From positions 172,948 through 236,947 of the forward strand of contig CAVSWE010000003.1 of assembly GCA_963731595.1 (NCBI GenBank): DNA of 64,000 nucleotides, written 5' to 3'. This DNA is from an uncultured delta proteobacterium (GTDB lineage: Bacteria; Myxococcota_A; Polyangia; Polyangiales; Polyangiaceae). The translations under genes and the position numbers were made by a program. The notes beneath the pieces are model-generated. The model did no database searches and was not told where the DNA came from. It saw nothing but the letters and a program-made list of their open reading frames with translations. Shown piece after piece: positions 22,093 to 54,009 of this stretch. The first letter of the stretch is position 1. Every line of letters starts with the position of its first letter.

Positions 22093-22225
22093 CGCTCCAC
22101 GGCCGACGACTCGCGCTGTGTTGTGCAAGCGAGCGGCAGCGTGAAGTCGCGGCCAGGCCGCCGCCGTGCGCCATCGGTCGCCCATTGACGCGAGGCGTCC
22201 GGCGATCTCACGAGTTAGGCCTGTT

Positions 22226-22588: not shown

Positions 22589-22656
22589 GGCGAGTACGAA
22601 TTTACCACGGGAAAAACCCGCTTGGCACGCGCCATTCGGCCGGCGAAGCTCTCGCC

Positions 22657-25566: not shown

Positions 25567-25589
25567 CGACCTGCGGTATTCTGGACCTC

Positions 25590-26510: not shown

Positions 26511-26514
26511 AGCC

Positions 26515-27315: not shown

Positions 27316-27372
27316 GAGCTGACGCTACCACGAATCGGGCCGAACGCAGCCCGTCGCGCGCCGCCCGCTCGA

Positions 27373-29415: not shown

Positions 29416-29449
29416 GACTCAGCGTAGCCTCGAGCCGCGCGCGCGGACG

Positions 29450-35488: not shown

Positions 35489-35507
35489 CCTTCGCGAAGT
35501 TCTGGGG

Positions 35508-35580
35508 TGGGCGAACCGGGACTTGAACCCGGAGCCAACGGATTAAGAGTCCGCTGCTCTACCAATTGAGCTATTCGCCC
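35508..35580 (-). tRNA. tRNA-Lys (anticodon CTT).
   Basis: Reverse complement GGGCGAATAGCTCAATTGGTAGAGCAGCGGACTCTTAATCCGTTGGCTCCGGGTTCAAGTCCCGGTTCGCCCA folds as a cloverleaf. It has a 7-bp acceptor stem, a D-arm GCTC/GAGC, the anticodon loop CTCTTAA, and a T-arm CCGGG/CCCGG with a TTCAAGT loop. Confidence 0.85.
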
Positions 35581-37369: not shown

Positions 37370-37376
37370 GGTCGCC

Positions 37377-37976
37377 ATGTCTTCGTTCACTCAAACGTTC
37401 CTCGCGGAGACGGCGCAGATCGTCTCCACCATCGACGCCGACGCGATCGAAGCCGTCGCCGACGGCCTCGCCGCGGTGCGCGCGGGCGGGGGCCGCCTCT
37501 TCATCCTCGGCGTCGGCGGCTCGGCCGGCCACGCGAGCCACGCGGTCAACGACTTCCGGAAGATCTGCGGCTTCGAGGCCTACGCCCCGACGGACAACGT
37601 GTCCGAGCTCACGGCGCGTACGAACGACGAGGGATGGGACACGACGTTCATCGAGTGGCTGAAGACCTCGCGCCTCGGGAGCGAGGACGCGCTCTTCATC
37701 TTCTCCGTCGGCGGCGGCAACAAGGAGAAGAACGTCTCGGTGAACCTCGTGCGCGCGATCGATCTCGCGAAGGAGCGCGGCGCGAAAGTGTTCGGCGTCG
37801 TCGGTCGCGACGGCGGGCACACCAAGCGCAGCGCCGACGCGTGCGTGCTCGTGCCGGTCGTCGCCGACGCGCGTATCACGCCGCACACCGAGGGGTTCGC
37901 CGCGGTCGTCTGGCACCTGCTCGTCAGTCACCCGAAGCTGCAGATCGCGGCGACCAAGTGGGAAAGCACGAAGTGA
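37377..37976 (+). CDS. gmhA: Sedoheptulose 7-phosphate isomerase (GmhA, SIS domain).
   Basis: SIS-domain motifs LFILGVGGSAGHASH and DALFIFSVGG; 199 aa. Confidence 0.9.
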   Translation: MSSFTQTFLAETAQIVSTIDADAIEAVADGLAAVRAGGGRLFILGVGGSAGHASHAVNDFRKICGFEAYAPTDNVSELTARTNDEGWDTTFIEWLKTSRLGSEDALFIFSVGGGNKEKNVSVNLVRAIDLAKERGAKVFGVVGRDGGHTKRSADACVLVPVVADARITPHTEGFAAVVWHLLVSHPKLQIAATKWESTK

Positions 37977-38575
37977 CGAAAGGGGTCATCCTCGACCGCG
38001 ACGGTACGCTCGTGGACGTCGTGCGCGACGAGGAGACCGGCGTCATCACGACGGCGTTTCATCCGTCGCAGCTTCGCCTCCTGCCGGGCGCGCTCGAAGG
38101 ACTGCAGAAGCTCCAATCCGCTGGGTTCGTGCTCGCCATCGCGAGCAATCAACCAGGGCCGGCGAAGGGCCATTTCTCTCGCGACGCCGTGACGAAGACC
38201 AACGCCGCGCTCGTCGCGATGCTCGCGCGCGAAAACGTGCAGATTGCAAAGGTCGTCGTGTGCATGCACCACCCGATCGGCGGCCCGGGCGGCGACGCGT
38301 CGCTCGTGGGGCCGTGCGCGTGCCGCAAGCCCAAGCCCGGCATGCTCCTCGAGATCGCGGAGGCTCTCGAGCTCGACCTCGAGCGTTCGTGGATCGTGGG
38401 CGACACGTCCTCGGACGTCGCGGCGGGTCGCGCCGCCGGGGTCCGCTCTGCGCTCGTGTTCGACCGGAACCGTTGCGAGCTCTGCCCGCTCCGCGGCGGC
38501 CCAGGCGTTTTGCCCGACGCGCAAGGCGCGACGGTGGCGGCGGTCGCGGACGAAATCACTCGTTTGGCGTGCTAG
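37973..38575 (+). CDS. gmhB: D-glycero-D-manno-heptose 1,7-bisphosphate phosphatase (GmhB, HAD family).
   Basis: HAD motif ILDRDGTL, GmhB zinc motif CMHHP...CACRKPKPGML, and WIVGDTSSD. The GTG overlaps the gmhA stop. Confidence 0.85.
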   Translation: MTKGVILDRDGTLVDVVRDEETGVITTAFHPSQLRLLPGALEGLQKLQSAGFVLAIASNQPGPAKGHFSRDAVTKTNAALVAMLARENVQIAKVVVCMHHPIGGPGGDASLVGPCACRKPKPGMLLEIAEALELDLERSWIVGDTSSDVAAGRAAGVRSALVFDRNRCELCPLRGGPGVLPDAQGATVAAVADEITRLAC

Positions 38576-38586
38576 TGTCCGCGCGC

Positions 38587-40767
38587 ATGAGCGGAAAACG
38601 CCGCGTCGAGCGCGTGGCCGATGCCCTCGCGTTTGCGGCGACGGCCTGGTTCGCGTTCACGGCATTTTGGGGAATCAACGCTCAACCCCATGCGGGCCAC
38701 ATCGGCTCCGCGGGCGCCGCGATCGCCATGACCGCGGAGAATTCGATCCGCTGGCACTCGTGGTATCCGCTCTCCGATTATTACGGCACGACCAACCCGT
38801 TTCCTCAGGGTGCGTACTGCCATCACCCGTTCGGCTGTTTCTGGATCAGTGAGATCGCGGTTCGGCTCTTCGGCCACGCCGACTTCGTCGCGAATCTTCC
38901 GTCCGCGATCATGAGCGCGCTCACGCCGCCGCTGCTTTATTGGACCGGCAAGCGCGCGTGGGGCCCGCTCCCCGGCGCCGCCGCGGCGATCGCGTTCGTG
39001 ACGCTGCCCATCACCGTGGGTTTTTCGATCTTCCACAACCTGGAAGTGATGACGATCTTCGGCGCCGTCCTGTTCTTCTGGGGCCACGGCAAGTTCCTCG
39101 AGACGCGGCGCGGGCGCGATCTCGCGTGGTCCCTCGTCGGCGCCTCGATTGCCGTGTCCGGCGACTGGGTCGGGTACGTCATCCTGGCCGGCCTCCTCGG
39201 CTGGGCTTTCCTTCGAGCGTTCGTCCTGCCGGCGTGGATGACGCCGCCTGTTCGCGTGGCGCAGTACCACCGCTGGTGGGCGCTCTCGGTCGCGCTCGCG
39301 GTGGGCTCGCTCGTGCTCTGGATCGCGATGTTCCAGCACGCCGACAAGCTCACCGACTGGATTGCCTCGGCGCAGGGCAGAAGCGGCGGCGCGGACGAGA
39401 AGCTCTCGGCCGTGTTGGAGGCGCGAAAGACCTGGATCGATTTCTCCTTCACGCCGTACGCGATCCTCGTCGGCAAGCTCGCCGCGCCGCTCGCCATCGT
39501 CCGTCTCGTCTACTTTCGCCGCGACGCCGAGATGTACTCGGTGGCGATGCTGTTCGGCGCGACGGTGCAGTATCTCGTCTTCAAGCAGGGCGCGGACATT
39601 CACATTTTCTGGCCGCACTATTTCGGCGCTTATTACGCGTACGCGTGCGCGCAGCTCGTTGCCACGGCCGGTGGGGTGACGCGCTGGGCCGCCCGGCGCT
39701 TCGCGCCGAATGCGGTTCGAAGCCCTGAGGTCGCCGTCTCGCTCTGCGCGCTCTTCCTCGCGACCGCGCCGCAGACACCCGACGCCGTCCGATCCCTGCG
39801 CGTGTGGCGCGAGTCGGCCGGGAGGTACGACGAGAAGGGTGTGCTCTATCGTAGCCACGCCGACCTCCTCTTCGTCGTGAAGAAGGTGCTCCGGCCCGAG
39901 ATCCATCGAGGCGAAAAGCTCGGCGTCGAGCCCGGAGTCAGCTGGGGCTGGGAGCACCAATGGGCGCTCGAAGGCATGGCCGAGACGGCGTCGTCGCCGT
40001 CGAACGCCCATCCCTATTGGCTCGCGCGCGCCAGCGCGTTGGGCGCCGATCAGCTCAAGACGTTGGCGCAGAAATACCATCTTCGCATCTACGGCGACGC
40101 GGTGATCGTGAAGCGCGGAGAACGTCAAGCGCCGGTCGACGCGTACGCGATCGAGGAGCGCGAGCCCGGCTGGATCGGCTGGATGTTCACGTACAACACC
40201 GAGCCGGTTCGCACGATTTCGGAGCAGCCCGACCCATTCGAGACGTGGGAGTGGCGGTATCATCTCGGCCAGCCGGCGGAGCGGCCGACGCAGAAGCCTC
40301 ACACGCTCGAACAGATCCGCATCGGTTACAACGCCGCGGTCGCGAGTCACGACGACCCCGCCGCTGCCAAGCTCCTCGAGGCCCTCCGCGACGGCATCGA
40401 TCGCACTGTCGAGGCTCATTTCGACGAGGGCAACGAGCTGATGGGCGTCCGCTTGGTGCACGGCGTCCGCCCGCGGATCGAGGTTTATTTTCAGGCGGGC
40501 GGCCCCACGGCCTCCGACACCAAGCTCACGATTCGCTCGGACGTCGTAGCCAAAGCCAAGCTCAGCCTGATTCCCCCGAGCCCGGTCGAGTGCGATCTCG
40601 CGTATCCACCCTCGCTGTCGACCAAGCTCTGGCAGCGTGGTTTCGTGTACAAGTTCGTAGCGCCGCTCCACCACCGCATCGGAGAGGAGCGGTATTGGGC
40701 TGCATGGGCCGGCGGACCACGTCGTCTGCACGGAGACCCGAAGATCGATTTGGCTTACGTGGAATGA
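38587..40767 (+). CDS. Large polytopic membrane protein with a C-terminal ~350 aa soluble domain (GT-C-like architecture; putative lipid-linked-sugar glycosyltransferase).
   Basis: About 11 N-terminal TM helices, with acidic/aromatic residues in the first loop, then a hydrophilic domain (726 aa). No exact family assignable by eye. Confidence 0.6.
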   Translation: MSGKRRVERVADALAFAATAWFAFTAFWGINAQPHAGHIGSAGAAIAMTAENSIRWHSWYPLSDYYGTTNPFPQGAYCHHPFGCFWISEIAVRLFGHADFVANLPSAIMSALTPPLLYWTGKRAWGPLPGAAAAIAFVTLPITVGFSIFHNLEVMTIFGAVLFFWGHGKFLETRRGRDLAWSLVGASIAVSGDWVGYVILAGLLGWAFLRAFVLPAWMTPPVRVAQYHRWWALSVALAVGSLVLWIAMFQHADKLTDWIASAQGRSGGADEKLSAVLEARKTWIDFSFTPYAILVGKLAAPLAIVRLVYFRRDAEMYSVAMLFGATVQYLVFKQGADIHIFWPHYFGAYYAYACAQLVATAGGVTRWAARRFAPNAVRSPEVAVSLCALFLATAPQTPDAVRSLRVWRESAGRYDEKGVLYRSHADLLFVVKKVLRPEIHRGEKLGVEPGVSWGWEHQWALEGMAETASSPSNAHPYWLARASALGADQLKTLAQKYHLRIYGDAVIVKRGERQAPVDAYAIEEREPGWIGWMFTYNTEPVRTISEQPDPFETWEWRYHLGQPAERPTQKPHTLEQIRIGYNAAVASHDDPAAAKLLEALRDGIDRTVEAHFDEGNELMGVRLVHGVRPRIEVYFQAGGPTASDTKLTIRSDVVAKAKLSLIPPSPVECDLAYPPSLSTKLWQRGFVYKFVAPLHHRIGEERYWAAWAGGPRRLHGDPKIDLAYVE

Positions 40768-41408
40768 ACCAACACATGGACCGAGAGAAGTCGTTCGGAC
40801 AGTACGCCGAGCCCAACGCCGTCGACCGCTTCGGCATCGCGCTCTCGCGCGCTCGAATTCGCCGCTCCGTCGGCAAGTTCGCTGGCAAGCGCATCGCGGA
40901 CATCGGCTGCGGTTTCCACGCGCTCGTCGTGCGCGGGTTCCTCGGCGAGGTCGAGTCGGCGACGCTGATCGACCTCGCGATCTCCGACGAGCTCAAGGCG
41001 CACACGCGTGTTCACGCCATCGAAGGCGAGCTGCCCGGCGTGCTCGAGCAGATCCCCGACGGGAGCCTCGACGTCGTCGTCTGCAACAACGTGCTCGAGC
41101 ACCTGTGGGACCCCGCCGTTGCCGTACGACATTTCCGCCGCATGCTGCGACCCGAAGGGGTCGCGCTGCTCAATGTCCCCTCGTGGCGCGGGAAGTACTT
41201 CCTCGAGCTCGCTTCATTCAAGTTGAACGTGGTCCCGCGGATCGAGATCGACGACCACAAGCACTATTACTCGCCGCACGAGCTCTGGACGCTGCTCGTG
41301 CAGGGCGGTTTTCGCCCGAGCGAGATCAAGAGCTGCCACACGCACAAGTTCGGCCTGAACACGTACGCCGAGTGCCGGGCGAGCGCGGACGTCGCGGCCA
41401 AGCCGTAG
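40764..41408 (+). CDS. Class I SAM-dependent methyltransferase (214 aa).
   Basis: IADIGCGFHALV (motif I) and VLEHLWDP...LRPEGVALLNVP. The ATG overlaps the upstream stop (ATGA). Confidence 0.75.
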   Translation: MNQHMDREKSFGQYAEPNAVDRFGIALSRARIRRSVGKFAGKRIADIGCGFHALVVRGFLGEVESATLIDLAISDELKAHTRVHAIEGELPGVLEQIPDGSLDVVVCNNVLEHLWDPAVAVRHFRRMLRPEGVALLNVPSWRGKYFLELASFKLNVVPRIEIDDHKHYYSPHELWTLLVQGGFRPSEIKSCHTHKFGLNTYAECRASADVAAKP

Positions 41409-41416
41409 CCCGTGCT

Positions 41417-42550
41417 ATGGAGCGGCCGATGAACGCCTTGACACGCTTGTTGCGCGCGTCGTGGGGACGGCCACGGCACGTGCTCGGCATCGGAAACCTC
41501 GACTGGTCCCAGCTCGACGGCGTCACGGCCGTCGACGACGAGAAGCTCGCCGCGACGAAGGGGAACTTCGACGCTGCGGTCGTCGAGCTGCCTGCGTCCG
41601 ACGAGGGCGCGCTCGAGCGACTGCGCGCGTGCGTCGGCCGTCTCTCGGACGGAGGACACGTGCTTCTTCCGGTCGCGCACCCGGTGTCATTCGCCGAAGG
41701 ACAACGCTTGCGCCGCGCCTTCGACCGCGCGCGCGAGCGAACGGTTCGCCTCGCCGAGGCCGCGGGCCTCGAGGTCTTGCGCGTCGACGTGCGATTGCAC
41801 GCCGCGGTCGTCGTCGCCCGCACCGCGCCGAAGCCCGGCAAGCTCTCGCTCACCGTCGGCATGCTCACGTTGAACGAGCAGCAAAGCGTCGAGCGGATGA
41901 TGGACGAGATCCATCAATACGCGCCCGACGCGAGCATCCTGCTCGTGGACAGCTCGAGCGACGAGACGCCGAACCTCGCGCGCGCCAAAGGCGCCGAGGT
42001 GATTCGGCAACTGCCGGCGCGCGGCCACGGTCCGGCGATGGAGCAGCTCATGTACGCGGCCGCCGATCGCAGCGACGCGCTCGTCTACATCGACTGCGAC
42101 TTCACCTACCCGACCGAATACATCCCGCGCATCCGCGAGCTCCTCGAGCAAGGCGCCGACGTCGTCAACGCGACGCGCACGCACAAATACCCGAAGGCGA
42201 TGCCCGTGCCGAACTTCATCGCGAACCGCGTGTTCGCCGCGACGGCTCAGATCGTCCACGGGATCCCAACGACCGACTTGCACAGCGGCCTGCGCGGGTA
42301 TCGCTCCTCGGTGATCAGAGCGTTTTCGTTCAGCGGGGAACAGGACGCGCTGCCGGTGACGACCTTGATCCTGCCGGCGCGTTCGAGCTACCGCGTCGTC
42401 GACCTTCCCATCCCCTACGCCGAGCGGGAGGGCATCTCCAAGCTGGCGAAGTTTCGGGGCACCGCGTGGACGTTCGCGCGCGTCGCAACGAGCCTCGGTC
42501 ACGGCCGGCGCGTGCGCCGCGGGCGCAACTACTCACACGTTGGACGCTGA
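41417..42550 (+). CDS. GT2-family glycosyltransferase (DPM1/polyprenol-phosphate sugar synthase-like) with a ~130 aa N-terminal extension.
   Basis: LTVGMLTLNEQQSV...ILLVDSSSDETPNLA...DCDFTYP (GT2 DxD region). Confidence 0.75.
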   Translation: MERPMNALTRLLRASWGRPRHVLGIGNLDWSQLDGVTAVDDEKLAATKGNFDAAVVELPASDEGALERLRACVGRLSDGGHVLLPVAHPVSFAEGQRLRRAFDRARERTVRLAEAAGLEVLRVDVRLHAAVVVARTAPKPGKLSLTVGMLTLNEQQSVERMMDEIHQYAPDASILLVDSSSDETPNLARAKGAEVIRQLPARGHGPAMEQLMYAAADRSDALVYIDCDFTYPTEYIPRIRELLEQGADVVNATRTHKYPKAMPVPNFIANRVFAATAQIVHGIPTTDLHSGLRGYRSSVIRAFSFSGEQDALPVTTLILPARSSYRVVDLPIPYAEREGISKLAKFRGTAWTFARVATSLGHGRRVRRGRNYSHVGR

Positions 42551-43489
42551 CCCGAAGATCTCGCCGGCGATTTCACGCACCGCGCGCTCGACGGCTTGAT
42601 CGGAGGTGTTGTGCATCCGAAAGCCGAGGGCCGCCAGCTTGTCGGGTCGCAGTCGCGAGCGGGCGACGTCGCCCGGCCACCCCTGGGCGCTCGTGCCGAA
42701 GGCGATGCGGGCGCCCGGGTTGGGCGAGCTGGCGACGCACAGCTCGGCGATGCGACGCACGGAGGTCGTGTCCGGCGGCGCGAGGTTGTAGATCGCGGGG
42801 TTCTCGCCGCTCGCGTGGTCGAGGACGAAGAGGATCGCCTCGGTGCAGTCGCTGACGTGGAGGTACGGCTTGCTCTGCCGGCCGTCGCCGAGGACGTCGA
42901 GGCAATCGGGCTTCTGCTGGAGCTTCTTGCAGAAGTCGACGATCGCGCCGTGCGTTCCCCGCGCACCCACCACGTTTCCGAATCGGCAGATGTAAGATCC
43001 GAGGCCGAAGCACTCCGAATAGGCCGCGATGAGCGCCTCGCCCGCGAACTTGCTCGCCCCGTAGAGCGAGATCGGCAAATGTCCGAGATCGGCCTCGCCG
43101 CACGGCTGATCGGTGTTGCCGTACACGGTTCCGCTCGAGGAGAAGACGAACTTGCCGACGTGCGTGAGCCGCGCAGCCTCGAGCGAGTTGTACGTCGCGA
43201 TGGTGCCTTGCTCGAGGTCGAGGCGCGTTCGCTCGAGCCCCCAGCGGGCCTCGGGGTTCGCCGCGAGGTGAAATACGACGTCATGGCCGGCCATCGCCGC
43301 CTGGAGCGCGTCGAGCTCGAGCGCGTCGCCGACGACCAACTTGGCCGCGCCGCTCGCGAGGTGTGCCGCTACGAATTCCCTCTTGCCGATCGACAGATTG
43401 TCGAAGATCGTCACCGGGCCGCGGGCGACGAGCCGGTCGACCAAGTGGCTTCCGATGAACCCTGCACCGCCGACGACGAACGACCGCAT
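42533..43489 (-). CDS. NAD-dependent epimerase/dehydratase (extended SDR; nucleotide-sugar epimerase-like).
   Basis: MRSFVVGGAGFIGSHLV Rossmann motif and catalytic YGASK (YxxxK). Confidence 0.8.
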   Translation of the reverse strand: MRSFVVGGAGFIGSHLVDRLVARGPVTIFDNLSIGKREFVAAHLASGAAKLVVGDALELDALQAAMAGHDVVFHLAANPEARWGLERTRLDLEQGTIATYNSLEAARLTHVGKFVFSSSGTVYGNTDQPCGEADLGHLPISLYGASKFAGEALIAAYSECFGLGSYICRFGNVVGARGTHGAIVDFCKKLQQKPDCLDVLGDGRQSKPYLHVSDCTEAILFVLDHASGENPAIYNLAPPDTTSVRRIAELCVASSPNPGARIAFGTSAQGWPGDVARSRLRPDKLAALGFRMHNTSDQAVERAVREIAGEIFGSASNV

Positions 43490-44366
43490 GGATGAGGGAG
43501 CGGAACATAGTGCGAAACCGGGCGCCTTGCGAGCGTTCGTCGCCGGCCTCCGTGAGGTCATGTTGCTGCGTGGGGCGCACGCCGTCGTCGCGGGGTACGG
43601 CCCCGCGACGCTGGCCGCGATCCGCGAGCACAAACGTGCCGCCTCCGCGCGACTGCGCGCGTCGCGCCGACTCTCGAACCCTCGCCTCGCCGTCGAGCTG
43701 CTCGCCGCGGCGCGCACGCACGCGGTGCTCGCGGCGGCCGCGGCAGGGCGCGCGGCGCCGCCGCCGATGGACGCCGTCGGTCTCGACGCGCTGCCCTTCG
43801 CCGATCTCGAGACCCTGCGCGATCGACTCGAGCTCGAGATCGGCGAGATCCTGGCTTCGATCGAGTCGCGCACGCCGACGGAGCTCCGTGGCCTCGTCTA
43901 CGGCCGGTTCGCGGCGATCGCCCTGGCCGTCTGCGCGGCCCTCTGGGCCGAGAGCAAGCCGTACCGAATCCACGACGTCGCGCTCGGCAAGCCGGTGACC
44001 ACGAGCCCGCTGCTCGCTCCTCCGGCGACGCCCGAGGGGATCGTGGACGGCCGCACGCGCGGCACGTTCGGGCTGCAGACGACCCGAGGGCGCGCGCCTT
44101 TCGTGACCATCGACCTCGAGCGCACGTACCTGATTCGTCGCATCGCGATCTACAACCGCGCCGACGGCTGGTACGACGAGATCCTGCCGCTGTCCCTCGA
44201 GGTCTCCGCCGACGGCATCACCTTCGAGCACGTCGCGACGCGGACCGAGCACTTCACCGTGTGGGACTTGCGCTTCGACGCCGGGCTCAACGCGCGCTGG
44301 GTCCGCGTCTCCAAGGACAACGGCTACATCGCCCTGAACGAAATCGAAGTCTATGCCCGCAACTGA
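43488..44366 (+). CDS. Type II membrane-anchored F5/8 type C (discoidin/CBM32-like) domain protein.
   Basis: About 150 aa cytoplasmic N-region, TM RFAAIALAVCAALWA, and a C-terminal discoidin signature ...FVTIDLERTYLIRRIAIYNRADGWYD...SADGITFEHV...WVRVSKDNGYIALNEIEVYA. The ATG forms a CATG overlap with the divergent epimerase start, so the start is uncertain. Confidence 0.65.
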   Translation: MDEGAEHSAKPGALRAFVAGLREVMLLRGAHAVVAGYGPATLAAIREHKRAASARLRASRRLSNPRLAVELLAAARTHAVLAAAAAGRAAPPPMDAVGLDALPFADLETLRDRLELEIGEILASIESRTPTELRGLVYGRFAAIALAVCAALWAESKPYRIHDVALGKPVTTSPLLAPPATPEGIVDGRTRGTFGLQTTRGRAPFVTIDLERTYLIRRIAIYNRADGWYDEILPLSLEVSADGITFEHVATRTEHFTVWDLRFDAGLNARWVRVSKDNGYIALNEIEVYARN

Positions 44367-46194
44367 CGCTCCCAAGCGCGACTGGTCGCGAATCGGCCGT
44401 ATCGCGCTCGAAGTGTTCACCTGGCTCCTCGCGCTCGGGATGCTGGCGCTCGTCGTCGCGCCCGTCTTCATCCACACCGACACGTACGGAGTCCACGACT
44501 GGGACCAGATGGAAGCGCACCGCTACCTCGCGGTGAAGACCATCAAGCGCTACCACCAGTTCCCGTTCTGGAACCCGTATAGCTGCGGCGGCCACACGTG
44601 GTGGGGCGGGCTCGAGAGCGGCACGTCGCTCGTGTCTCCTTGGCTGCCGATCTACCTGCTCGCGCCGTTCACCTGGGCGCTGCGGCTCGAGATCGTCGGC
44701 GCGGCGCTCTTGTCGGTGGTCGGTACGTGGCTCTTCGCCGGTCGCTTCACGCGGAGCCCCGGGCTGCGCCTGCTCGCGATTGCGGCGTTCGCGCTCGACG
44801 GCCGATTCACGCTCCAAACCTCGGTCGGCCACACGTGGCACCTCTATTACGCTTGGACGCCATGGGCGCTCTACTTCCTCGACCGCGCGATCGCGATCGC
44901 GCCCGGCGCGTCGCGCAAGACCGCTTTTCGCGACGTCGTGTTCCTCGGCGCGACGCTCGCGATGATGGTCTACACGGGCGGCATCTACCCGCTGCCCCAG
45001 ACGATCGTCATGATCGCGATCTATTCGATCACGTGCGCCGTCGTGACTCGCTCGACCCGGCCGGTGACGCTGGCGGTCGCCGGCGGGCTCTTGTCGTTCG
45101 CCTTCTCGGCGCCGCGGCTCCTGCCGATCATCGAGATGCTCCGGCACTACCCGCGCCTCGTCGACTCTCCCGAGTCGATGGATCTCGGCGCGCTCATCGG
45201 GGTCTTCACGGCGAAGGAGAGCGAGCCTCGCCCCTCGCTCGGCCCGTGGGGCTGGCACGAGTTCGGGATCTACGTCGGGTGGGTGCCGTTCGCGATGATG
45301 CTGTTCGCGCTCGCGGTCGGCGGCCGCGCGCGGGAGCGCGCGCTGCGTCTCGCAGGCGCCTTCGCGCTCGTCTGCGGGCTCGGGCGCTTCCACAAGTACT
45401 CGCCGTGGGGGCTCATGCATGACCACCTGCCGATCTTCGAGTCGCAGCACGTGCCCTCGCGCTGGCTCTACCCCGCCGCGCTGATGCTCGTCGTCGCGGC
45501 CGTCGCGGTCGTGGAGCGCTGGCTCGCGCACCGGAGGCGGCGAGGCTTGCTCGAGGTCGCGGTGATGTCACTCGCCGCGTACGTCGCGCTCGACGTGGGC
45601 CTCGAGGCGCAGCGGCCGCTGGTCGGCGCGTTCGCCTACCATTTGCGCCCGCTCGTCGACAGCGTCGGCGAATTTCATCAAGAGCGCACGGCGCCGCCCG
45701 AGCTTCGTTACGACGGCTCCGATTGGGCACCCCCGAACATGCCGTCGATGATCGCGAACGTCGGCGTGCTCGCGTGCGGCACCTTTCCCGGCTTCGACTC
45801 CTATTACCGCGACGCTCACGACCACTCGCCGGGCATGGGGGCAAAGGCCCGTGGAGACGCTGACTATCGCGGCGAGGTCTACTTCCCGTCGGGTCACGGC
45901 CGAGCTTCGATCACGTCGTGGTCTCCGAACGCGGTCACCGTCTCGTACAGCGACGCGCAGCCCGGCGATCTGCTCGTCTTGAACGAGAACTGGGACTCCG
46001 GCTGGCATGCGAGCGGAGGCCGCGTCGAGGCGCACGCCGACGCGATCGGCGTACGCGTCGGCGCGAGCGAAGGCGTCGTCCGCTTCCGCTATACGCCGCC
46101 TTTCTTCTGGCTCGGCTGTTGGATCTTCGCCTCGACGGTCGCGGGCCTGGTGCTCTTGAAACGGCGAAACGTGGTAAAACGAGCGGAAACTTAG
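44353..46194 (+). CDS. Polytopic membrane protein (613 aa), GT-C-like; overlaps the stop of the upstream discoidin gene.
   Basis: At least 11 TM helices, a first loop HTDTYGVHDWDQMEAHRY rich in acidic residues, and a C-terminal ~180 aa soluble domain. Confidence 0.6.
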   Translation: MPATDAPKRDWSRIGRIALEVFTWLLALGMLALVVAPVFIHTDTYGVHDWDQMEAHRYLAVKTIKRYHQFPFWNPYSCGGHTWWGGLESGTSLVSPWLPIYLLAPFTWALRLEIVGAALLSVVGTWLFAGRFTRSPGLRLLAIAAFALDGRFTLQTSVGHTWHLYYAWTPWALYFLDRAIAIAPGASRKTAFRDVVFLGATLAMMVYTGGIYPLPQTIVMIAIYSITCAVVTRSTRPVTLAVAGGLLSFAFSAPRLLPIIEMLRHYPRLVDSPESMDLGALIGVFTAKESEPRPSLGPWGWHEFGIYVGWVPFAMMLFALAVGGRARERALRLAGAFALVCGLGRFHKYSPWGLMHDHLPIFESQHVPSRWLYPAALMLVVAAVAVVERWLAHRRRRGLLEVAVMSLAAYVALDVGLEAQRPLVGAFAYHLRPLVDSVGEFHQERTAPPELRYDGSDWAPPNMPSMIANVGVLACGTFPGFDSYYRDAHDHSPGMGAKARGDADYRGEVYFPSGHGRASITSWSPNAVTVSYSDAQPGDLLVLNENWDSGWHASGGRVEAHADAIGVRVGASEGVVRFRYTPPFFWLGCWIFASTVAGLVLLKRRNVVKRAET

Positions 46195-46208
46195 GAGGGA
46201 ACTCCCCA

Positions 46209-46865
46209 ATGGCGATCTTCATCGACAGCTCCGACCCGAAGGAAATCAAAGACCTCTTCGCGTGGGGCGTGCTCTCCGGCGTCACGACGAACCCCCTCAT
46301 CATCTCGAAGGAGAGGCCCGACGCGGACCTCGGCGAGATTGTCCGCGAGATCCTCGCGGTGAGCTGGGGCGACGTTTCGGTCGAGCTCACGACCGAGACC
46401 GAAAGCGAGATGCTCGCGGAAGCGTCCGGGTATCACGCGTGGGATCCGCAGCGCATCACCATCAAGGTGCCGATGAGCGAGGCGGGCCTTCGCGTGCTCC
46501 ACCAGCTCTCGAAGAAGGGCGTGAAGACGAACGTCACGTGCCTCATGTCGATGAACCAGGCTTATCTAGCTGCGCTCGCAGGCGCGACCTACGTCAGCAT
46601 CTTCTCCGGTCGCGTCCGCGACATGGGCTACGACGTGAAGCCGATCATCGCCGCGACCCGCAACGTGCTCGACCGCGAGAATCTGCCGTCGAAGATCATC
46701 GTCGGCTCGATGCGTCACATGATGGACGTGAACGAGGCGCTCGAAGCCGGCGCTCACGTGCCCACGATCACGCCGACCATCTTGCGCAAGATGGTCTGGA
46801 ATCCGCGGACGATCGAGACCATCAACGAGTTCAACACCGCGTGGAGAAACCGCGGCAAAAAGTAG
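46209..46865 (+). CDS. Transaldolase/fructose-6-phosphate aldolase family protein (TalC/FSA-like, 218 aa).
   Basis: GVTTNPLII motif and a KVP Schiff-base lysine region. A strong GGAGGG RBS sits 8-9 nt upstream. Confidence 0.85.
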   Translation: MAIFIDSSDPKEIKDLFAWGVLSGVTTNPLIISKERPDADLGEIVREILAVSWGDVSVELTTETESEMLAEASGYHAWDPQRITIKVPMSEAGLRVLHQLSKKGVKTNVTCLMSMNQAYLAALAGATYVSIFSGRVRDMGYDVKPIIAATRNVLDRENLPSKIIVGSMRHMMDVNEALEAGAHVPTITPTILRKMVWNPRTIETINEFNTAWRNRGKK

Positions 46866-46880
46866 GCTCGCGGTCGAGCG

Positions 46881-47867
46881 ATGTCCAAGCGCGCGCTGAT
46901 CACCGGAATCACGGGTCAAGATGGCTCGTACCTCGCCGAGCTACTGCTCGAGAAAGGCTACGAGGTGCACGGCCTCGTGCGTCGTTCCAGCTCGCTCAAC
47001 CGAAGCCGCATCGACCACATCTTCAACGCCGATCTCTCGCACCGGCGACACTTGCACTATGGCGATCTCACCGACGGCTCCTCCGTAAACCGCTTGCTCC
47101 GCGCGATCCGGCCGGACGAGATCTACAACCTCGGCGCGCAGAGCCACGTCAAGGTGAGCTTCGAGATCCCCGAGTACACCGCCGAGACGGCCGGGCTCGG
47201 CGCGCTTCGTTTCCTCGAGGGCATTCGCGAGACGGATCTCGTCACGCGATTTTACCAGGCGGGCTCGTCCGAGATGTTCGGCTCCGCGGCGGCGCCGCAG
47301 TCCGAGCTCACGCCGTTCCACCCGCGATCGCCCTACGCCGCAGCGAAGGTGTACGCGCACACGATCGCGGTGAACTACCGCGAAGCGTACGGGATGTTCG
47401 TCTGCAACGGCATCCTCTTCAACCACGAGTCCCCGCGGCGCGGGGAGAACTTCGTGACGCGCAAGATCACGCGCGGCGTCGCGGCGATCAAGCTCGGCCA
47501 GCAGAAGCAGCTCGCGCTCGGCAACCTCGACGCGCAGCGCGATTGGGGCTACGCGAAGGACTACGTCGTCGCGATGTGGCAGATGCTCCAGTGCGACCAG
47601 CCCGACGACTACGTCGTCGCTACGGGCGAGACCCACACCGTCCGCGAGTTCTGCGAGGTTGCGTTCGCTCACGCCGGGCTCGACTACCGCAAGCACGTCG
47701 TCATCGACCCGAGCTACTTCCGCCCGACCGAGGTGGACGTGCTGCAGGGCGACGCCCGCAAAGCTCACGCCGCGTTCGGGTGGAAGCCCACCGTGAAGTT
47801 CGAGGAGCTCGCGAAGCTCATGGTCGACGCCGACCTCGACGCTCTCCGCAGCGGGCACGCCCAATGA
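46881..47867 (+). CDS. gmd: GDP-mannose 4,6-dehydratase family (Gmd/DmhA-like).
   Basis: [36 protein letters not shown] catalytic motif, 328 aa. Confidence 0.9.
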
Positions 47868-49105
47868 GCTACCGCGGGATCGCGGAGTGCCGCATCTGCG
47901 GCGGCTCGAACCTCGTCACGGTCCTCGATCTCGGCCAGCAAGCGCTGACGGGCGTCTTCCCGGACGCGAAGAACCCCGAGGTCGAAGTCGCGCCGCTCGA
48001 CCTCGTGAAATGCGACGGGCCTGGCTCGTGCGGGCTCGTGCAGCTGCGGCACACGTGCGAGCCGTCGCAAATGTATGGAGCGAACTACGGCTACCGCTCG
48101 GGGCTCAATCTCTCCATGGTCGAGCACTTGCGCGCCAAGGTCGCGCGCCTCGTCGAGCTCGCGCCGCTGGCCCCTGGCGACGTCGTGCTCGACATCGGCA
48201 GCAACGACGGGACGACGCTCTCGTCGTATCCGAGCACGGCGAAGCTCGTCGGCATCGACCCCACGGCGGCGAAATTCCGCCAGTATTACCCCGAGCACGT
48301 CACCGTCGTGCCGGACTTCTTCTCGTCCGCTCGCTTCCTCGATGCGAGCGGCGGCGCGCGCGCGAAGATCGTCACGTCGATCGCGATGTTCTACGACCTC
48401 GAGCGCCCGATGGACTTCATGCGCGACGTGTTTGCCTCGCTCGCCGACGACGGCGTCTGGCACTTCGAGCAGAGCTATCTCCCGTCGATGCTCGACGCGC
48501 TCTCGTACGACACGATCTGCCACGAGCACCTCGAGTACTACGCGCTCGCGCAGATCCAGTGGATGGCCGAGCGCGTCGGTTTTCGGATCGTCGACGTCGA
48601 GCTCAACGACGTCAACGGCGGCTCGTTCGCGATCACCGCGCGGAAAGGTCGCAACGGCGCCGCTTCGCCGCGCGTCGCGGAGCTCGCGGCCGCGGAGAGG
48701 ATGCGCGCGCTCGACACCCTCGCGCCCTACGAGAAATTCGCGTCCGACGTCGCGCACCACCGCGACGAGCTGCGCGCCCTCCTCGGGCGTCTGCGCGACG
48801 ACGGCAAGCGCGTCTTCGGCCTCGGCGCGTCGACGAAGGGCAACGTCCTCTTGCAGTATTGCGGCTTCGGCGTGCGCGAGCTCGCATGCATCGCCGAGGT
48901 CAACCCCGACAAGTTCGGCCACGTCACCCCCGGCACGAACATCCCGATCGTATCCGAGGCGGACGCGCTCGCGCGCGCCCCGGATTATTTCATGGCGCTC
49001 CCGTGGCATTTTCGGAGCACGCTGCTCCGCGCGCACGCGAGCTTCCTCGAGCGCGGCGGCAAGATGATCTTTCCGTTGCCGCGTCTCGAGATCGTCGGGG
49101 CATGA
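47864..49105 (+). CDS. Sugar C-methyltransferase (TylCIII/NovU-like: zinc ribbon, SAM methyltransferase domain, C-methyltransferase C-terminal domain).
   Basis: N-terminal CRICGG...C...C zinc-binding region. [10 protein letters not shown] (motif I). A C-terminal domain typical of NDP-hexose 3-C-methyltransferases. ATGA overlaps at both ends. Confidence 0.8.
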
Positions 49106-49993
49106 AGCGAGCGGCCGTCATCGGCTGCGCGGGGCAAGACGGACGCCTCCTCCGCGAGCGCCTCTCGAAGGAAGCGGAGGTCGTCGGCGTGGATCTCGGC
49201 GACGTCGACCTCGCGGAATCCGGCGGCGACGACCGCGTGGATCGAGCGCATCGCGCCGGACGAGCTCTACTACCTGGCCGCGCACCATCACTCGGCCGAG
49301 GCTCTTCCGGACGACGCGAGCGAGCTCCGCGCGTGCACCGCCGTACACGTGACGTCCTGGGTGAACGTGCTCGACGCGCTCCGGCGGCACGCGCCCGCGT
49401 GCCGCGCGTTCTACGCCGGCTCGTCGCACATGTTCGGCCGTCCCGCGGTTTCGCCTCAAAACGAGACGACGCCGTTCGCACCACGAAGCCCGTACGCGAT
49501 CACGAAGGTCGCGGGCGCGCACGTCGCCGCGCTCTACCGTGACCGCGGGATGCACGTTTCGGTCGGCATCCTCTACAATCACGAGTCGGCGCTTCGCGGC
49601 CCGCAGTTCGTCTCGCAACGAATCGTCCGCGGTGCGAAGCGCGCGGCAAACGATCGCACCTTCGAGCTCGTGCTCGGCGACCTGTCCGCCGTAGTCGACT
49701 GGGGCTGGGCGCCCGACTATGTCGACGCGATGGTTCGCATTCTCGCGCAGCCGGCTCCGGACGATTACGTCGTCGCCACCGGGACGCCGCACTCCGTCCA
49801 GGACTTCGTGGCGAGCGCGTTCGCCTGCGCGGGCGTCGACTGGCGTTCGCGGGTGGTGGAGGATCCGACCATCGTCAAGACGAAGGCGCTCCCACTCGTC
49901 GGCGACTCGACGAAGCTCCGCGCACGTACCGCCTGGGCGCCTACGGTGACGTTCGAGGAAATGGTGAAGCAGCTCGTGCAAGGTGGGCAGTGA
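49105..49993 (+). CDS. GDP-4-keto-6-deoxy-sugar reductase/dehydratase family (Rmd/DmhB-like), with an apparent +1 frame shift near 49235.
   Basis: N-terminal [17 protein letters not shown] in frame 1. The rest is in frame 2 (...PDELYYLAAHHHSAE...SPYAITKVAG...). Confidence 0.75.
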
Positions 49994-50964
49994 CGTGAAC
50001 CTCGATCGGGTGGCGAGCGTGGCGACCGAGTGGCTCCTCCAGAAGGACGCGGAGACACGTGCGAGGGCGCGCGAGAGCAATCCGGAGCACGCGCGCTTGG
50101 TCCAGCTATGTCTCCGTGGCGCTGACGAACGACTCGACCTCCTCGGCGACGTCACGGAGCCCGTAGTCGCGCTCGCGTCATCCGCCGCGTTGCGCGAGGC
50201 GACGCTGCTGCTGCTCGAAGCGACGGGTTCGCGGAGCGGGCCGCTCGACGCCGTCGCAGAGCTCCGTCGCACCTGCGAAGAGCTCGCCGTTCCCGCGGGG
50301 ACATGCAGCGCAGCAGCGCGCTTGCTCGTCGACGACCCGCTCGCGCTCTCGGGTCTGGCGTCAGCGGATTTCGGTCCGTTCTGCGCTCGCCCTCGAGCAC
50401 GTCGCACGCGCGCTCCGCGCGCACCTCGACGGCCGAACCGCGTCGCGCATCGTGCGTTCGCGGCGCTTGCGCGTGGCGCTCCTCGCGGCGCTGGCCCTGT
50501 ACGGCGTCTTCGCGCTCGGGCTCGCCGTGTTCGGGCGCAAGAACATCGCACGCGGCAAGCCCGTCCTCATGAGCAGCGTCGACGGGGCCAGTGCCCCACC
50601 GCAGATGCTCGTCGACGGCGTTCGGTCCGCCGACACCAAGCCGGGCTCCCCGAAGCCGGACGTCGTCTACACGCGCCACGAGGCGCATCCCTGGGCGCTC
50701 GTCGATCTCGGGCGCGAATACAACATCCGGGAGGTGCGCCTGTACAATCGCGACGACGGAGGCTTCGACGACGGCCTCCCGTACATCGTCGAGTTCTCGT
50801 TCGACGGCCACACGTTCTGGGAAGTCGGCCGCTGCGAGACGCACTTCGGGAGTTGGTGGATCGACCCGCCCTGCCGTGTGCCGTGCGACCGGCGCACCAC
50901 GCGCTTCGTCCGCGTCAGCGCGACGGGTTACCTCGCGCTCAGCGAGATCGAGGTGTTCCCTTGA
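49983..50964 (+). CDS. Second membrane-anchored F5/8 type C (discoidin) domain protein, paralog of 43488..44366, with an apparent +1 frame shift near 50395.
   Basis: GTG start overlapping the upstream stop. N-terminal ~135 aa in frame 0. TM LRVALLAALALYGVFALGLAVFG plus discoidin ...WALVDLGREYNIREVRLYNRDDGG...FSFDGHTFWEV...RFVRVSATGYLALSEIEVFP in frame 1. Confidence 0.55.
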
Positions 50965-52715
50965 ACCGCCTCCGGCTCGCCGAGTGGCAGCGTCCTTTGC
51001 TCGCCATCTTTCTGACGCTGCTCACGCTGCGCATCACGGCCTATTTCTTCGCGATCCTGAACGACAACTTTCTCCACGCCGGCCTCGAGTACGACGAGAG
51101 CTATTTCGTGTGGTGCGGGTGGATGATCAACAAGGGCTTCGCGCCGTACCGCGACTTCCTCGAATTCAAGCCGCCGATGACGTTCATCACGCACGCCATG
51201 GCGCTGAAGCTCTTCGGGTTTCATGAGTTCGGCTACCGGAAGTTCTTCGCCTATTTTCCGCTGGGGTCCCTCCTCGCGCTGCAGCTCGCGATGTTGTCGC
51301 GCCGAATCGACCGGTGGCTCGCGCTCGCCCTCACGATCGCGTTCATCCAGATCTGGCTGAACCCCACCTTTCACGACGTGGCGCTCTCGGACTCGGAGTC
51401 GATCGGGCTCGCGTACTACCTGCTCGGGGTCGCCTGCCTGTTCGCGCGCACGCGCTTTCGAACGACGCTCCAGTGGTTGGGTGGGGCGATGTTCGCCTGC
51501 TCGATCTTTTCGAAGGAGCCGTTCTTGCCGTGCGTGGGCATGACGTGGATCAGCCTTTTCCTGCTGGGGGACGAGCCCGGGACGTTCGCCGTGCGTGCGC
51601 GCCGCTACGCGGGCCGGACGATCGGCGGCGGGCTCGTCGTGCTCGCCCTGCTGTGCGCTTACATGATCCCGAGCGGCGCGATGCGCGCGTACCTCGACGT
51701 CCTGCACCGGTACTTCCACTTCTACCGCGACGTGAAGGAGTCGTATTGCGTCGTCCTCGGGCGCTTTCATCCGACGGTGCCGTTGAACGACCTCCACATG
51801 CAGTGGCGGCAGGCGCGCGCCTCGTTCGCGAACTCGACGAACCTCGGCTTCCTCGCGCCGTTCGCCGCAGCCTCGATCGTGTTCATCTGGAAGCGCTCGC
51901 GCGTCCTGTTCGCGACCGTGCTCATCGGCGTAGGTTCGGCGCTCTGGGCCGTGACGGCGAGCAACTGCCAGTGGGCGCACTACTACACGATGACGATGAG
52001 CGGTCTCTTCTTCGCGCTCGTCGTGGGCCTCGATTCGCTCACGCCGCATTTCCGCGCGATGAGCCGCGCGTCGCGGGTGTTTCTCTCGATCGCCATGCTC
52101 GGCACCGTGCTCCTGCACGACTGGGTTCGCTTCGACGCCGAACGCGACAAGTACGGCACGCGGACGGCGCAGGAGTTCAAATCGAAGGAGCCCGTCCCCG
52201 GCGTGTTCGAGGCCGTGCAGCGGTACACGACGCCGGCGGAACGCATCGTCACGACCGGTGCGCCGAGCCTGTACATGCAAGTCGATCGGATCGACGGCAT
52301 GCGCGAATCCACCACCGACGACGAGGTGCTCGGCTTCTACAGTGGCGCCACGGACGAGGAAAAGCTCAGCAGCGTTAGAGCCGAGCTACTTCGTAGCCGC
52401 CCCAAGCTGATCATCCTCGACTCGTCGCCTTCCGGCGACGGGCGCAAGCGCCGCTGGCGCGCCGCGCTGTGGGACCCCTTCTTGCACGACTTCCATTATC
52501 GCGAGATCAAACCTCGCATTTACGTCCGACCGGATCTGATCAGTCCGGTCGGCGCGCGACGACGACGGCCTGCACGAAGAAATCCTTCGGCCCGAAGTCG
52601 TACGAGACGAGCTCGAGGCCGCCCGAGGCGAGGAGCTTCGAAGCCTCGCTCTTGGAGTGCACCAGCGACGGCTCCGGCGGGTGCAGTCGGACGTTCTTCG
52701 CGAGCACGTCGTTGA
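50961..52715 (+). CDS. GT-C-fold glycosyltransferase (ArnT/PMT-like, GT39/GT83 family); 3' end uncertain.
   Basis: TTG start overlapping the discoidin stop. First periplasmic loop LEYDESYFVWCGWMINKGFAPYRDFLEFKPPMTFI (DE motif and EFKPP, as in ArnT/PMT). More than 10 TM helices. The last ~60 aa are Arg-rich, so the true stop may lie nearer 52530. Confidence 0.7.
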   Translation: MNRLRLAEWQRPLLAIFLTLLTLRITAYFFAILNDNFLHAGLEYDESYFVWCGWMINKGFAPYRDFLEFKPPMTFITHAMALKLFGFHEFGYRKFFAYFPLGSLLALQLAMLSRRIDRWLALALTIAFIQIWLNPTFHDVALSDSESIGLAYYLLGVACLFARTRFRTTLQWLGGAMFACSIFSKEPFLPCVGMTWISLFLLGDEPGTFAVRARRYAGRTIGGGLVVLALLCAYMIPSGAMRAYLDVLHRYFHFYRDVKESYCVVLGRFHPTVPLNDLHMQWRQARASFANSTNLGFLAPFAAASIVFIWKRSRVLFATVLIGVGSALWAVTASNCQWAHYYTMTMSGLFFALVVGLDSLTPHFRAMSRASRVFLSIAMLGTVLLHDWVRFDAERDKYGTRTAQEFKSKEPVPGVFEAVQRYTTPAERIVTTGAPSLYMQVDRIDGMRESTTDDEVLGFYSGATDEEKLSSVRAELLRSRPKLIILDSSPSGDGRKRRWRAALWDPFLHDFHYREIKPRIYVRPDLISPVGARRRRPARRNPSARSRTRRARGRPRRGASKPRSWSAPATAPAGAVGRSSRARR

Positions 52716-54009
52716 GCATCCAGTGAGCGAGGCCGAGCACCTTGACGCTCGTGGCCTGCGCGTGCGGCCAGAAGACGACCATCTTGCCGCCCGGCTTGAG
52801 CACGCGCCGGATCTCGCCGAACGCGCGACCCAGCTCCTCGTGCGTGAAGTGCTCGACCACGCCGAGGTTGTATGCGCCGTCGAAGGTGGCCTCCTCGAAG
52901 GGCAGGTCGAAGATGCTCGCGTGCGTCACCTGCGCCTCCGGGTTCTCGCGCAGATACGTGCGGAGAGCCGACTCGGAGATGTCCACGGCGACGATGTCCG
53001 CGCGATCGTGCAGGTCCACGTCGACCTGCCCGCTGCCGCAGCCCGCGTGGAGAAGGCGCGAGCCCTGGCCAAACTCGCGCTCGATGGTTTCCTGCAGGCG
53101 ACGCTTGATGACCGTGTTGCGGTAGAGCGTGGCGATGACGTCGTACGTGGCCGCGGTCGCGCGCTCTTTCTTGTCCCAGTATTCGTTCCAGTTCTGCACG
53201 TCGACGAGCTCGGAATTTATCTCCGGAGCGCCCGCCAGCCTGAAGCGAGACGGCGACGTCACGTTGGTGAGCCAGAGCGAGCCGAGCGTCTTCACGCTGC
53301 GCGCGACCTCGACCGCGCTCATCTTGGAGCTGCCGTACGTTCGCGCCGGCAGCGCGAGCGGCACCTCGGCGATCGAGAAGCCGTTGTTGTGGAGGATGAA
53401 CAGGCTCTCGAAGAAGAACGCGTACCCGCGCGACCGCACGAGATCGAACACCGCCCGCGGGATCGTCTCGAGGTTGTAGACGCGGAACGCGCCCGTCGCG
53501 TCCTGCGGCATCCCGAGGACGTTCTTCGTGAGTGCGTGGCCGAGCGTCGTCAGTGATTTGCGGAAGAGCGTCCAGCCCGGCAAGCTGTTCTCGGCGAGGT
53601 AACGCGAGCCGACGACGGCGTCCGAGGTCTCTGCGCGCGCGAGAAACATCGGGATGGCGTCGGGCGAGTGCGTGAAGTCGCCGTCGAGCGTGACCAGCCG
53701 ATGGTAACCGTGATCGTACGCGTAAGCGATGCCGGCGACGTGGGCGCTGCCGATGCCGCTCTTCGCCGGGCGATGAATGACCGACAGCCGCGCGTGCTTG
53801 CGCGCGAGCTGGTCGAGGAGCTCCCCGGTCCCGTCCGGCGACGAGTCATCCATGAAGACGATGTCGGCATCGAGGCCGAGCGCGAAGAGCTGATTGCACA
53901 TCGGCTCCACGTTGTTCCGCTCGTTGTAAGTGGGAATGAAGATGAGTGTTTTCTTCGCGCTGACCAAGCCGGACCTCGCCCGAAGGTGGAGCTTACGACG
54001 ACCGCACAA
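52540..54009 (-). CDS. Bifunctional GT2 (DPM1-like polyprenol-phosphate glycosyltransferase) and class I SAM methyltransferase fusion.
   Basis: N-terminus LIFIPTYNERNNV...VFMDDSSPDGT...TLDGDFTHSP (GT2). C-terminus LLHAGCGSGQVDV...VLKPGGKMVVFWP (methyltransferase). Confidence 0.8.
   Translation of the reverse strand: MCGRRKLHLRARSGLVSAKKTLIFIPTYNERNNVEPMCNQLFALGLDADIVFMDDSSPDGTGELLDQLARKHARLSVIHRPAKSGIGSAHVAGIAYAYDHGYHRLVTLDGDFTHSPDAIPMFLARAETSDAVVGSRYLAENSLPGWTLFRKSLTTLGHALTKNVLGMPQDATGAFRVYNLETIPRAVFDLVRSRGYAFFFESLFILHNNGFSIAEVPLALPARTYGSSKMSAVEVARSVKTLGSLWLTNVTSPSRFRLAGAPEINSELVDVQNWNEYWDKKERATAATYDVIATLYRNTVIKRRLQETIEREFGQGSRLLHAGCGSGQVDVDLHDRADIVAVDISESALRTYLRENPEAQVTHASIFDLPFEEATFDGAYNLGVVEHFTHEELGRAFGEIRRVLKPGGKMVVFWPHAQATSVKVLGLAHWMLNDVLAKNVRLHPPEPSLVHSKSEASKLLASGGLELVSYDFGPKDFFVQAVVVARRPD

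Follow-up and report, generated by a model that had tools for sequence, protein, structure and literature searches.

A predicted three-enzyme cassette for a GDP-linked C-methyl-branched 6-deoxyhexose in an uncultured Polyangiaceae bacterium

The window analyzed here is a stretch of 64,000 nucleotides from an uncultured delta proteobacterium of the Polyangiaceae (GenBank assembly GCA_963731595.1, contig CAVSWE010000003.1, positions 172,948–236,947), with a GC content of approximately 69%, in which genes were called from third-position GC. At 46881–49993 it contains three forward-strand genes, encoding a GDP-mannose 4,6-dehydratase (Gmd), a sugar C-methyltransferase of the TylCIII/TcaB9 family, and a short-chain dehydrogenase/reductase (SDR) that is a paralogue of Gmd. 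We consider it likely, with a probability of roughly 0.7, that this triplet is a self-contained cassette converting GDP-mannose to a GDP-linked C-methyl-branched 6-deoxyhexose for the cell envelope of this soil myxobacterium. An earlier sequence-only reading had described 46209–49993 as a translationally coupled triplet of a dehydratase, a methyltransferase, and a reductase, and had assigned to it a 6-deoxy, C-methyl-branched heptose. The order of the three same-strand genes and the overlaps on both sides of the methyltransferase gene were confirmed: the methyltransferase ATG lies on the gmd stop codon in an ATGA at 47864–47867, the ATG of the Gmd-paralogue gene lies on the methyltransferase stop codon in a second ATGA at 49102–49105, and both 4-nt overlaps are also kept in a related locus on a 7.0-Mb contig (L003); the translational coupling of the earlier reading is thereby supported. 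The interval itself contains four forward-strand genes and not three, 46209 being the ATG of a separate gene of the transaldolase/FSA family, whose stop codon is separated by 15 nt from the gmd start at 46881. Judged from the enzyme families, the 6-deoxy, C-methyl-branched GDP-sugar was a sound prediction; the sequence-only reading was right on the families and on this outcome, and probably wrong on the heptose.

In the proposed pathway, Gmd would dehydrate GDP-mannose to GDP-4-keto-6-deoxymannose. The TylCIII/TcaB9-type enzyme would deprotonate this intermediate beside the 4-keto group and add a methyl group from S-adenosylmethionine (SAM), likely at C3, and the Gmd paralogue would use NAD(P)H to reduce the 4-keto group, yielding GDP-6-deoxy-3-C-methyl-hexose. 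The stereochemistry of the product at C3 and C4 is not predictable from the sequence.

The product of the first gene is assigned as a canonical GDP-mannose 4,6-dehydratase. It scored 510.5 bits against NCBIfam TIGR01472 (gmd), passing the equivalog cut-off of 415, and contained GITGQDG (GxxGxxG), GSSEMFG with the catalytic Ser-x-Glu, and SPYAAAK (YxxxK). Whereas this bore out the Gmd-type 4,6-dehydratase of the sequence-only reading, the further identification of the protein as DmhA, the dehydratase of the GDP-heptose pathway, was not upheld. Against solved proteins in the PDB, it showed 361–456 bits with GDP-mannose dehydratases overall (Arabidopsis MUR1, 456; human GMD, 421; E. coli Gmd, 411; P. 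aeruginosa Gmd, 380) and only 114 bits with the solved C. jejuni GDP-heptose 4,6-dehydratase (7us5). Specificity for mannose or heptose was judged from overall similarity together with gene context. A closer relationship to the characterized heptose dehydratase was considered and rejected, the four named GDP-mannose enzymes scoring 380–456 bits. The sequence-only reading had itself named a dehydratase of the GDP-mannose type as evidence against a heptose, and the TIGR01472 score of 510 against 415 falls on that side.

The second gene product had been read as a TylCIII-type sugar C-methyltransferase, and the domain analysis bore this out. Methyltransf_13, Methyltransf_23, and Methyltransf_14 (PF08421, 60.7 bits; PF13489, 53.4; PF08484, 162) all exceeded their cut-offs and corresponded to a layout with a Cys4 zinc domain at the N-terminus, a domain for SAM binding, and a C-methyltransferase domain at the C-terminus. 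The full-length matches in the PDB were the mycarose 3-C-methyltransferase 4rv9 (4e-58), TcaB9, and 5t64, with scores of 173–200 bits and E values of 1e-50 to 4e-58; every full-length solved match was a sugar 3-C-methyltransferase, and the remaining matches were short, local, and weak. From this architecture and these homologues, an O- or N-methyltransferase was ruled out, in agreement with the sequence-only reading, which did not place the protein among such enzymes. In an alignment of 25 members of the clade, whose mutual identity was 48–85%, residues C9, C12, C50, and C56, the SAM motif VLDIGSNDG, and H220-E221-H222 were conserved, some of them being only nearly invariant. The presumed catalytic Glu-His pair E221/H222 aligned with the catalytic E224/H225 of TcaB9 (HEH opposite DEH/HEH in TcaB9/4rv9), while the position of TcaB9 Tyr222 was occupied by Cys219 in the window enzyme and by Cys in its clade. 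The three domains, the Cys4 zinc site, the SAM motif, and the Glu-His pair are shared with TylCIII, EryBIII, TcaB9, KijD1, and 4rv9. Those enzymes act on dTDP-4-keto-6-deoxy or 2,6-dideoxy hexoses and have RmlA/RmlB-type neighbors, whereas the window clade has Gmd-family neighbors; the characterized TylCIII/TcaB9 members all take dTDP-linked substrates, and the gene context of the window enzyme points to GDP. Because the solved full-length relatives are 3-C-methyltransferases, C3 is most likely the carbon that would be methylated.

For the third gene, an SDR suited to reduction of a 4-keto group stood, but the Rmd-like character given to it in the sequence-only reading did not. The protein scored 137–169 bits with bacterial and plant Gmd and 122–124 with human GMD in the PDB, compared with 48–60 bits for the Rmd structures 2pk3 and 6x3b. 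An Rmd/DmhB-like identity was rejected on these values, and the naming of the dehydratase and reductase together as the DmhA/DmhB pair was not supported. In the paralogue, the catalytic Glu of the dehydratases was replaced by His (GSSHMFG), Ser/Tyr/Lys and GxxGxxG were retained, and the Gmd segment bearing the RR loop was absent. Among 120 homologue clusters with at least 54% identity, the Glu position was occupied by His in 64, Gln in 56, and Glu in none, and the Ser, Tyr, and Lys were invariant. Since the Glu was lost while Ser/Tyr/Lys were kept, ketone reduction rather than dehydration is expected, and the paralogue is presumed to be an NAD(P)H-using 4-ketoreductase. At least 27 of the 120 clusters shared a contig with a cluster of the C-methyltransferase clade, as judged by identical lengths of their longest contigs. 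The homologues of 49229–49993 (P0241–P0360) made up a large family of approximately 296–320 aa Gmd paralogues with His or Gln for the catalytic Glu. Every cluster with a source name was named GDP-mannose 4,6-dehydratase; the His/Gln paralogues are probably not dehydratases, and this naming is probably a systematic annotation error worth correcting.

The distribution of these genes in related genomes bore directly on the substrate. A scan of genome contigs yielded four loci, and further loci were fetched individually. The locus in another Polyangiaceae metagenome-assembled genome (MAG), L002, was syntenic with the window throughout. L003, with a methyltransferase 85% identical to that of the window, contained only the genes for Gmd, the methyltransferase, the reductase candidate, an F5/8 type C protein, a membrane protein, and a fusion of a GT2 glycosyltransferase with a methyltransferase, and was flanked upstream by TetR, class II aminoacyl-tRNA synthetase-like, and GNAT genes. 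A canonical gmd gene overlapped the methyltransferase gene in both L006 and L007; a reductase homologue was found just downstream by tblastn in L006 and none in L007. L012 contained the methyltransferase, the reductase candidate, and the GT2-methyltransferase fusion without Gmd and without heptose genes. No heptose genes were found within 10 kb of the Gmd-methyltransferase units of L003, L006, and L007, and no HddA homologue was found on the 7.0-Mb contig of L003 among the best 120 matches, a result that is only suggestive since the MAG may have other contigs. Conversely, a 3.65-Mb contig (L009) and an 809-kb contig (L010) carried the heptose module that in the window lies upstream of the triplet, with neither a C-methyltransferase nor a close Gmd homologue within 10 kb; a transaldolase gene followed the kinase gene in L009, and no transaldolase was recognized in L010. 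The triplet and the heptose module are separable, each occurring without the other in relatives, and this argues for their independence.

The metagenomic survey gave a similar picture. Metagenome contigs were scanned with the alignment of the methyltransferase clade, which yielded 80 loci and, around them, 655 kb of flanking sequence, and a gene was counted as Gmd-family when its product shared at least 40% identity with either Gmd or the Gmd paralogue of the window. Such a gene was present in 47 of the 80 loci and adjacent to the methyltransferase in 35; when only the 49 loci flanked by 1 kb or more on each side were counted, it was adjacent in 27. It was also adjacent in nine of 11 individually fetched loci (L002–L008, L012, and L001, the last by its cut-off flanking open reading frames). 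By tblastn of the same 655 kb, an HddA-like kinase was found in 0 of the 80 loci, as was a transaldolase. Sensitivity was adequate, because a 42%-identical kinase in L008 was detected at the same settings. Taken with the triplet genes of L003, L006, and L012, the Gmd-methyltransferase pair standing alone in L007, and the heptose modules of L009 and L010, these counts argued against the heptose substrate of the sequence-only reading. In the Actinomycetota loci L004 and L005, two Gmd-family genes lay upstream of the methyltransferase gene, the canonical Gmd first and a second Gmd-like gene directly before the methyltransferase; the latter kept the catalytic Glu in L005 (SSSEVFG). A second Gmd-like gene also preceded the methyltransferase gene in L027, L046, and L081, with the canonical Gmd 4.5–5.4 kb upstream. 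This second gene might encode either another dehydratase or a reductase.

Several observations weigh against a GDP-mannose-derived hexose made by an intact cassette. One co-directional gene string holds the cassette, the transaldolase gene, and the heptose module, both in the window and in L002. L008, a large multi-sugar polysaccharide cluster of the Gemmatimonadales with homologues of Wzy, Wzz, and MurJ, has the methyltransferase gene and a reductase-like gene together with SIS, HAD, and GHMP genes; there the heptose-like genes lie 5–10 kb away, and this is the one other co-occurrence. The methyltransferase family includes C5-methyltransferases such as NovU, so that C3 is not certain, and the GDP specificity of the enzyme is suggested by gene context only. 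Finally, the genes for the reductase candidate and the F5/8 protein are both frameshifted in the assembly.

The first two of these observations are what would be expected if the dehydratase took GDP-heptose and the product were 6-deoxy-3-C-methyl-heptose, to our knowledge a sugar not previously described; the four-gene heptose module and the transaldolase share a gene string with the triplet, the transaldolase stop codon standing 15 nt from the gmd start, the arrangement is conserved in L002, and L008 shows a comparable pairing. We regard this alternative as highly improbable. The dehydratase is an orthologue of the GDP-mannose dehydratases and stands far from the one heptose dehydratase with a solved structure, the reductase candidate is unrelated to the DmhB/Rmd-type reductases, the triplet and the module are found apart in relatives, the 80 clade loci lack a heptose kinase, and the nucleotidyltransferase of the module is nearer to MurU than to HddC, leaving GDP activation of heptose unproven.

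The same scaffold might also serve other chemistry, with NovU-like methylation at C5, a sugar linked to a nucleotide other than GDP, or a Gmd paralogue acting as an epimerase or a regulatory subunit. Neither the regiochemistry nor the nucleotide preference can be read from the sequence, the substitution of Cys219 for TcaB9 Tyr222 would fit a departure from the known enzymes, and in some loci of the clade a different SDR, approximately 25–35% identical, lies downstream in place of the Gmd paralogue. These variants nevertheless seem quite unlikely, considering that the solved full-length matches are all 3-C-methyltransferases, that Gmd-family genes are the dominant neighbors, and that the paralogue keeps the SDR triad and GxxGxxG and loses only the residue needed for dehydration. 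A GDP-linked 6-deoxyhexose methylated most likely at C3 remains the preferred product.

The third gene is not an intact open reading frame in the window but is split: residues 1 to approximately 39 are read from 49102 and the remainder in the next frame, the cause being one A too many at 49217 (GGAATCC instead of GGATCC). A near-identical 2.2-kb Logan contig (L001), which differs from the window by two single-nucleotide polymorphisms, is without this A and reads straight through, and the gene is intact in L001, L002, and L003. The F5/8 gene has a second frameshift near 50373, since tblastn with its 324-aa orthologue from L003 aligned in two pieces in different frames, at 49995–50372 and 50374–50961. 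The other 12 genes in 37973–53967 each gave one continuous alignment to L002 over 96–100% of their length. The insertion at 49217 breaks a GATC, the second frameshift falls where L002 has a GATC, and codon-position GC remains gene-like across both. The frameshifts are more likely assembly error than decay of the genes, and they may stem from miscalled bases at methylated positions, if the assembly is assumed to be one of long reads. Were they real, the cassette would be decaying in this genome and would make at most the 4-keto intermediate, or nothing. Two single-base frameshifts within 1.2 kb, among genes that otherwise align unbroken to L002, would suit such decay; it is unlikely given that the contig without the insertion at 49217 comes from an independent read set, that the codon-position GC is gene-like over both breaks, and that GATC at both sites is as basecalling error would have it.

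The closest precedent for an intact cassette is the GDP-virenose pathway proposed for Coxiella burnetii, in which Gmd and the TylCIII homologue CBU_0691 are followed by a reductase (PMC3539893; PMC3204966), and which is in silico beyond GDP-mannose synthesis. It has the same logic of 3-C-methylation followed by C4 reduction and the same first two enzyme families. Whereas the candidate reductases of Coxiella are of the GMER/Fcl type, the Rmd type, or a bifunctional Gmd, the window encodes a dedicated Gmd paralogue with His in place of Glu; on sequence grounds, the cassette is the Coxiella virenose logic with a different reductase lineage. The DmhA/DmhB systems (WcbK/WcaG) for GDP-6-deoxy-manno-heptose, known from Yersinia pseudotuberculosis, Campylobacter jejuni, and Burkholderia pseudomallei, resemble the window in having an SDR 4,6-dehydratase followed by an SDR for 4-reduction of a GDP-sugar, with heptose genes in the locus. 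Unlike in those systems, the window dehydratase is a Gmd orthologue, the reductase candidate is a Gmd paralogue and not Rmd- or Fcl-like, and in relatives the triplet stands apart from heptose genes. The Gmd/Rmd route to GDP-D-rhamnose in Pseudomonas aeruginosa and Aneurinibacillus thermoaerophilus likewise places a stereospecific 4-keto reduction after Gmd, but the window has a C-methyltransferase inserted between the two steps and a reductase candidate nearer to Gmd than to Rmd. The term C-methyl never occurs in a review of the Campylobacter heptose pathways (PMC10680097), and heptose is unmentioned in a review of the dehydratases (PMC8987622). In the literature, we found neither a characterized GDP-dependent member of the TylCIII family nor a characterized member of the cassette clade.

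The cassette was found in MAGs labelled Polyangiaceae, Myxococcaceae, Actinomycetota, and Gemmatimonadales, and in that of one archaeon. If the proposed pathway is correct, GDP-linked 3-C-methyl-6-deoxyhexoses, relatives of virenose and evalose, would extend beyond Coxiella, and the methyltransferase clade would provide many candidates for a GDP-dependent enzyme of the TylCIII family. The current view of deoxysugar biosynthesis would not be overturned.

The neighboring genes are listed with the triplet in Table 1. The heptose module lies approximately 8 kb upstream of the triplet, and all four enzyme types stand together at 35676–38575. The best PDB matches of the kinase were themselves heptose kinases (121–170 bits, the highest with 3k85), whereas all NCBIfam scores of the module were under the cut-offs: 140 versus 600 for HddA, for which the scanned open reading frame was N-terminally truncated, 52 versus 209 for GmhA, 118 versus 178 for GmhB, and 52 versus 300 for HddC. 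Because the nucleotidyltransferase fits MurU better than the weakly matching HddC, activation of the heptose with GDP is uncertain. The transaldolase scored 158 bits against TIGR00875, under its cut-off. A 90%-identical transaldolase gene directly follows the heptose kinase gene in L009, and the gene is absent from L003; as a functional member of the triplet it was rejected on these grounds. It looks like a part of the heptose module and could supply sedoheptulose 7-phosphate. The module and the transaldolase would make a second sugar independently of the triplet, both sugars serving one glycan locus.

Table 1. Coordinates of the triplet and surrounding features in the window.
Feature	Position	Strand	Evidence
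Methyltransferase gene	34703–35488		
tRNA-Lys (CTT)	35506–35580	−	
Nucleotidyltransferase (NTP_transferase)	35676–36377	+	Pfam; best match MurU
HddA-like GHMP heptose kinase	36374–37369	+	Pfam; PDB 3k85 (170 bits), WcbL, 4n3o
SIS isomerase	37377–37976	+	Pfam; NCBIfam best family GmhA
HAD-IIIA phosphatase	37973–38575	+	Pfam; NCBIfam best family GmhB
Large polytopic membrane protein, PMT_2-type GT-C	38590–40767		Assigned once N-terminus extended
GalE-like SDR	42533–43444	−	Best PDB 3ehe, 199 bits
F5/8 type C protein	43527–44366		
Large polytopic membrane protein	44353–46194		No Pfam match
Transaldolase/FSA family, 218 aa	46209–46865	+	Pfam TAL_FSA, E = 7e-36
Canonical Gmd, 328 aa	46881–47867	+	Pfam GDP_Man_Dehyd, E = 2.4e-138
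TylCIII/TcaB9-family sugar C-methyltransferase, 413 aa	47864–49105	+	Pfam Methyltransf_13, Methyltransf_23, Methyltransf_14
Gmd-paralogue SDR, ~296 aa once repaired	49102–49993	+	Pfam GDP_Man_Dehyd, E = 1.6e-58 on 49229–49993
F5/8 type C (galactose-binding-like) protein	49995–50964	+	Pfam F5_F8_type_C on 50467–50964
Large polytopic membrane protein, 584 aa	50961–52715	+	No Pfam match
GT2 glycosyltransferase–SAM methyltransferase fusion, 475 aa	52540–53967	−	Pfam Glycos_transf_2, Methyltransf_11
BacA/UppP undecaprenyl-diphosphate phosphatase	58473–59264		

Downstream of the triplet, L002 and L003 both keep the F5/8 gene behind the reductase gene, and the gene for the 584-aa membrane protein always follows it there. 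In the window as in L002, the convergent gene for the GT2-methyltransferase fusion overlaps the membrane-protein gene by approximately 175 nt. L002, L003, L012, and several metagenomic loci have this fusion gene alongside those for the methyltransferase and the reductase candidate. In its GT2 half, the fusion resembles polyprenyl-phosphate glycosyltransferases, the best PDB matches being dolichol-phosphate mannose synthase 5mlz (1.5e-20) and ArnC. At E values of up to 5, no Pfam match was found for the membrane proteins at 44353–46194 and 50961–52715; both are putative glycosyltransferases, and the latter might use a lipid-linked sugar donor. The F5/8 protein, this membrane protein, and the dolichol-phosphate mannose synthase-like fusion would probably place the sugar on polyprenyl phosphate and then on an envelope acceptor, the transfer to the acceptor taking place outside the cytoplasmic membrane. 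The locus might accordingly contain two parallel routes, each passing a sugar from its nucleotide-linked form via polyprenyl phosphate to an acceptor in the envelope.

Of the three large polytopic membrane proteins in the window, the one belonging to the heptose module is the PMT_2-type GT-C, and the genes for the other two are each preceded and overlapped by an F5/8 type C gene. The GalE-like SDR, encoded on the reverse strand inside the heptose module, has homologues with 40–69% identity in L009 and L010, and its called open reading frame seems approximately 15 residues short at the N-terminus; it may epimerize the NDP-heptose. The tRNA gene has a methyltransferase gene on one side and the beginning of the heptose module on the other. 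Further upstream, 16415–32271 encodes TamB, a BamA-like Omp85/POTRA protein, a PmbA/TldD peptidase, FG-GAP/ASPIC, and AAA_16, which fits a diderm, and a BacA/UppP gene lies downstream of the triplet. In L009 and L010, too, the heptose module is flanked by the FG-GAP/ASPIC gene, in L010 together with an AAA-ATPase gene, and the module seems to be at a conserved chromosomal site.

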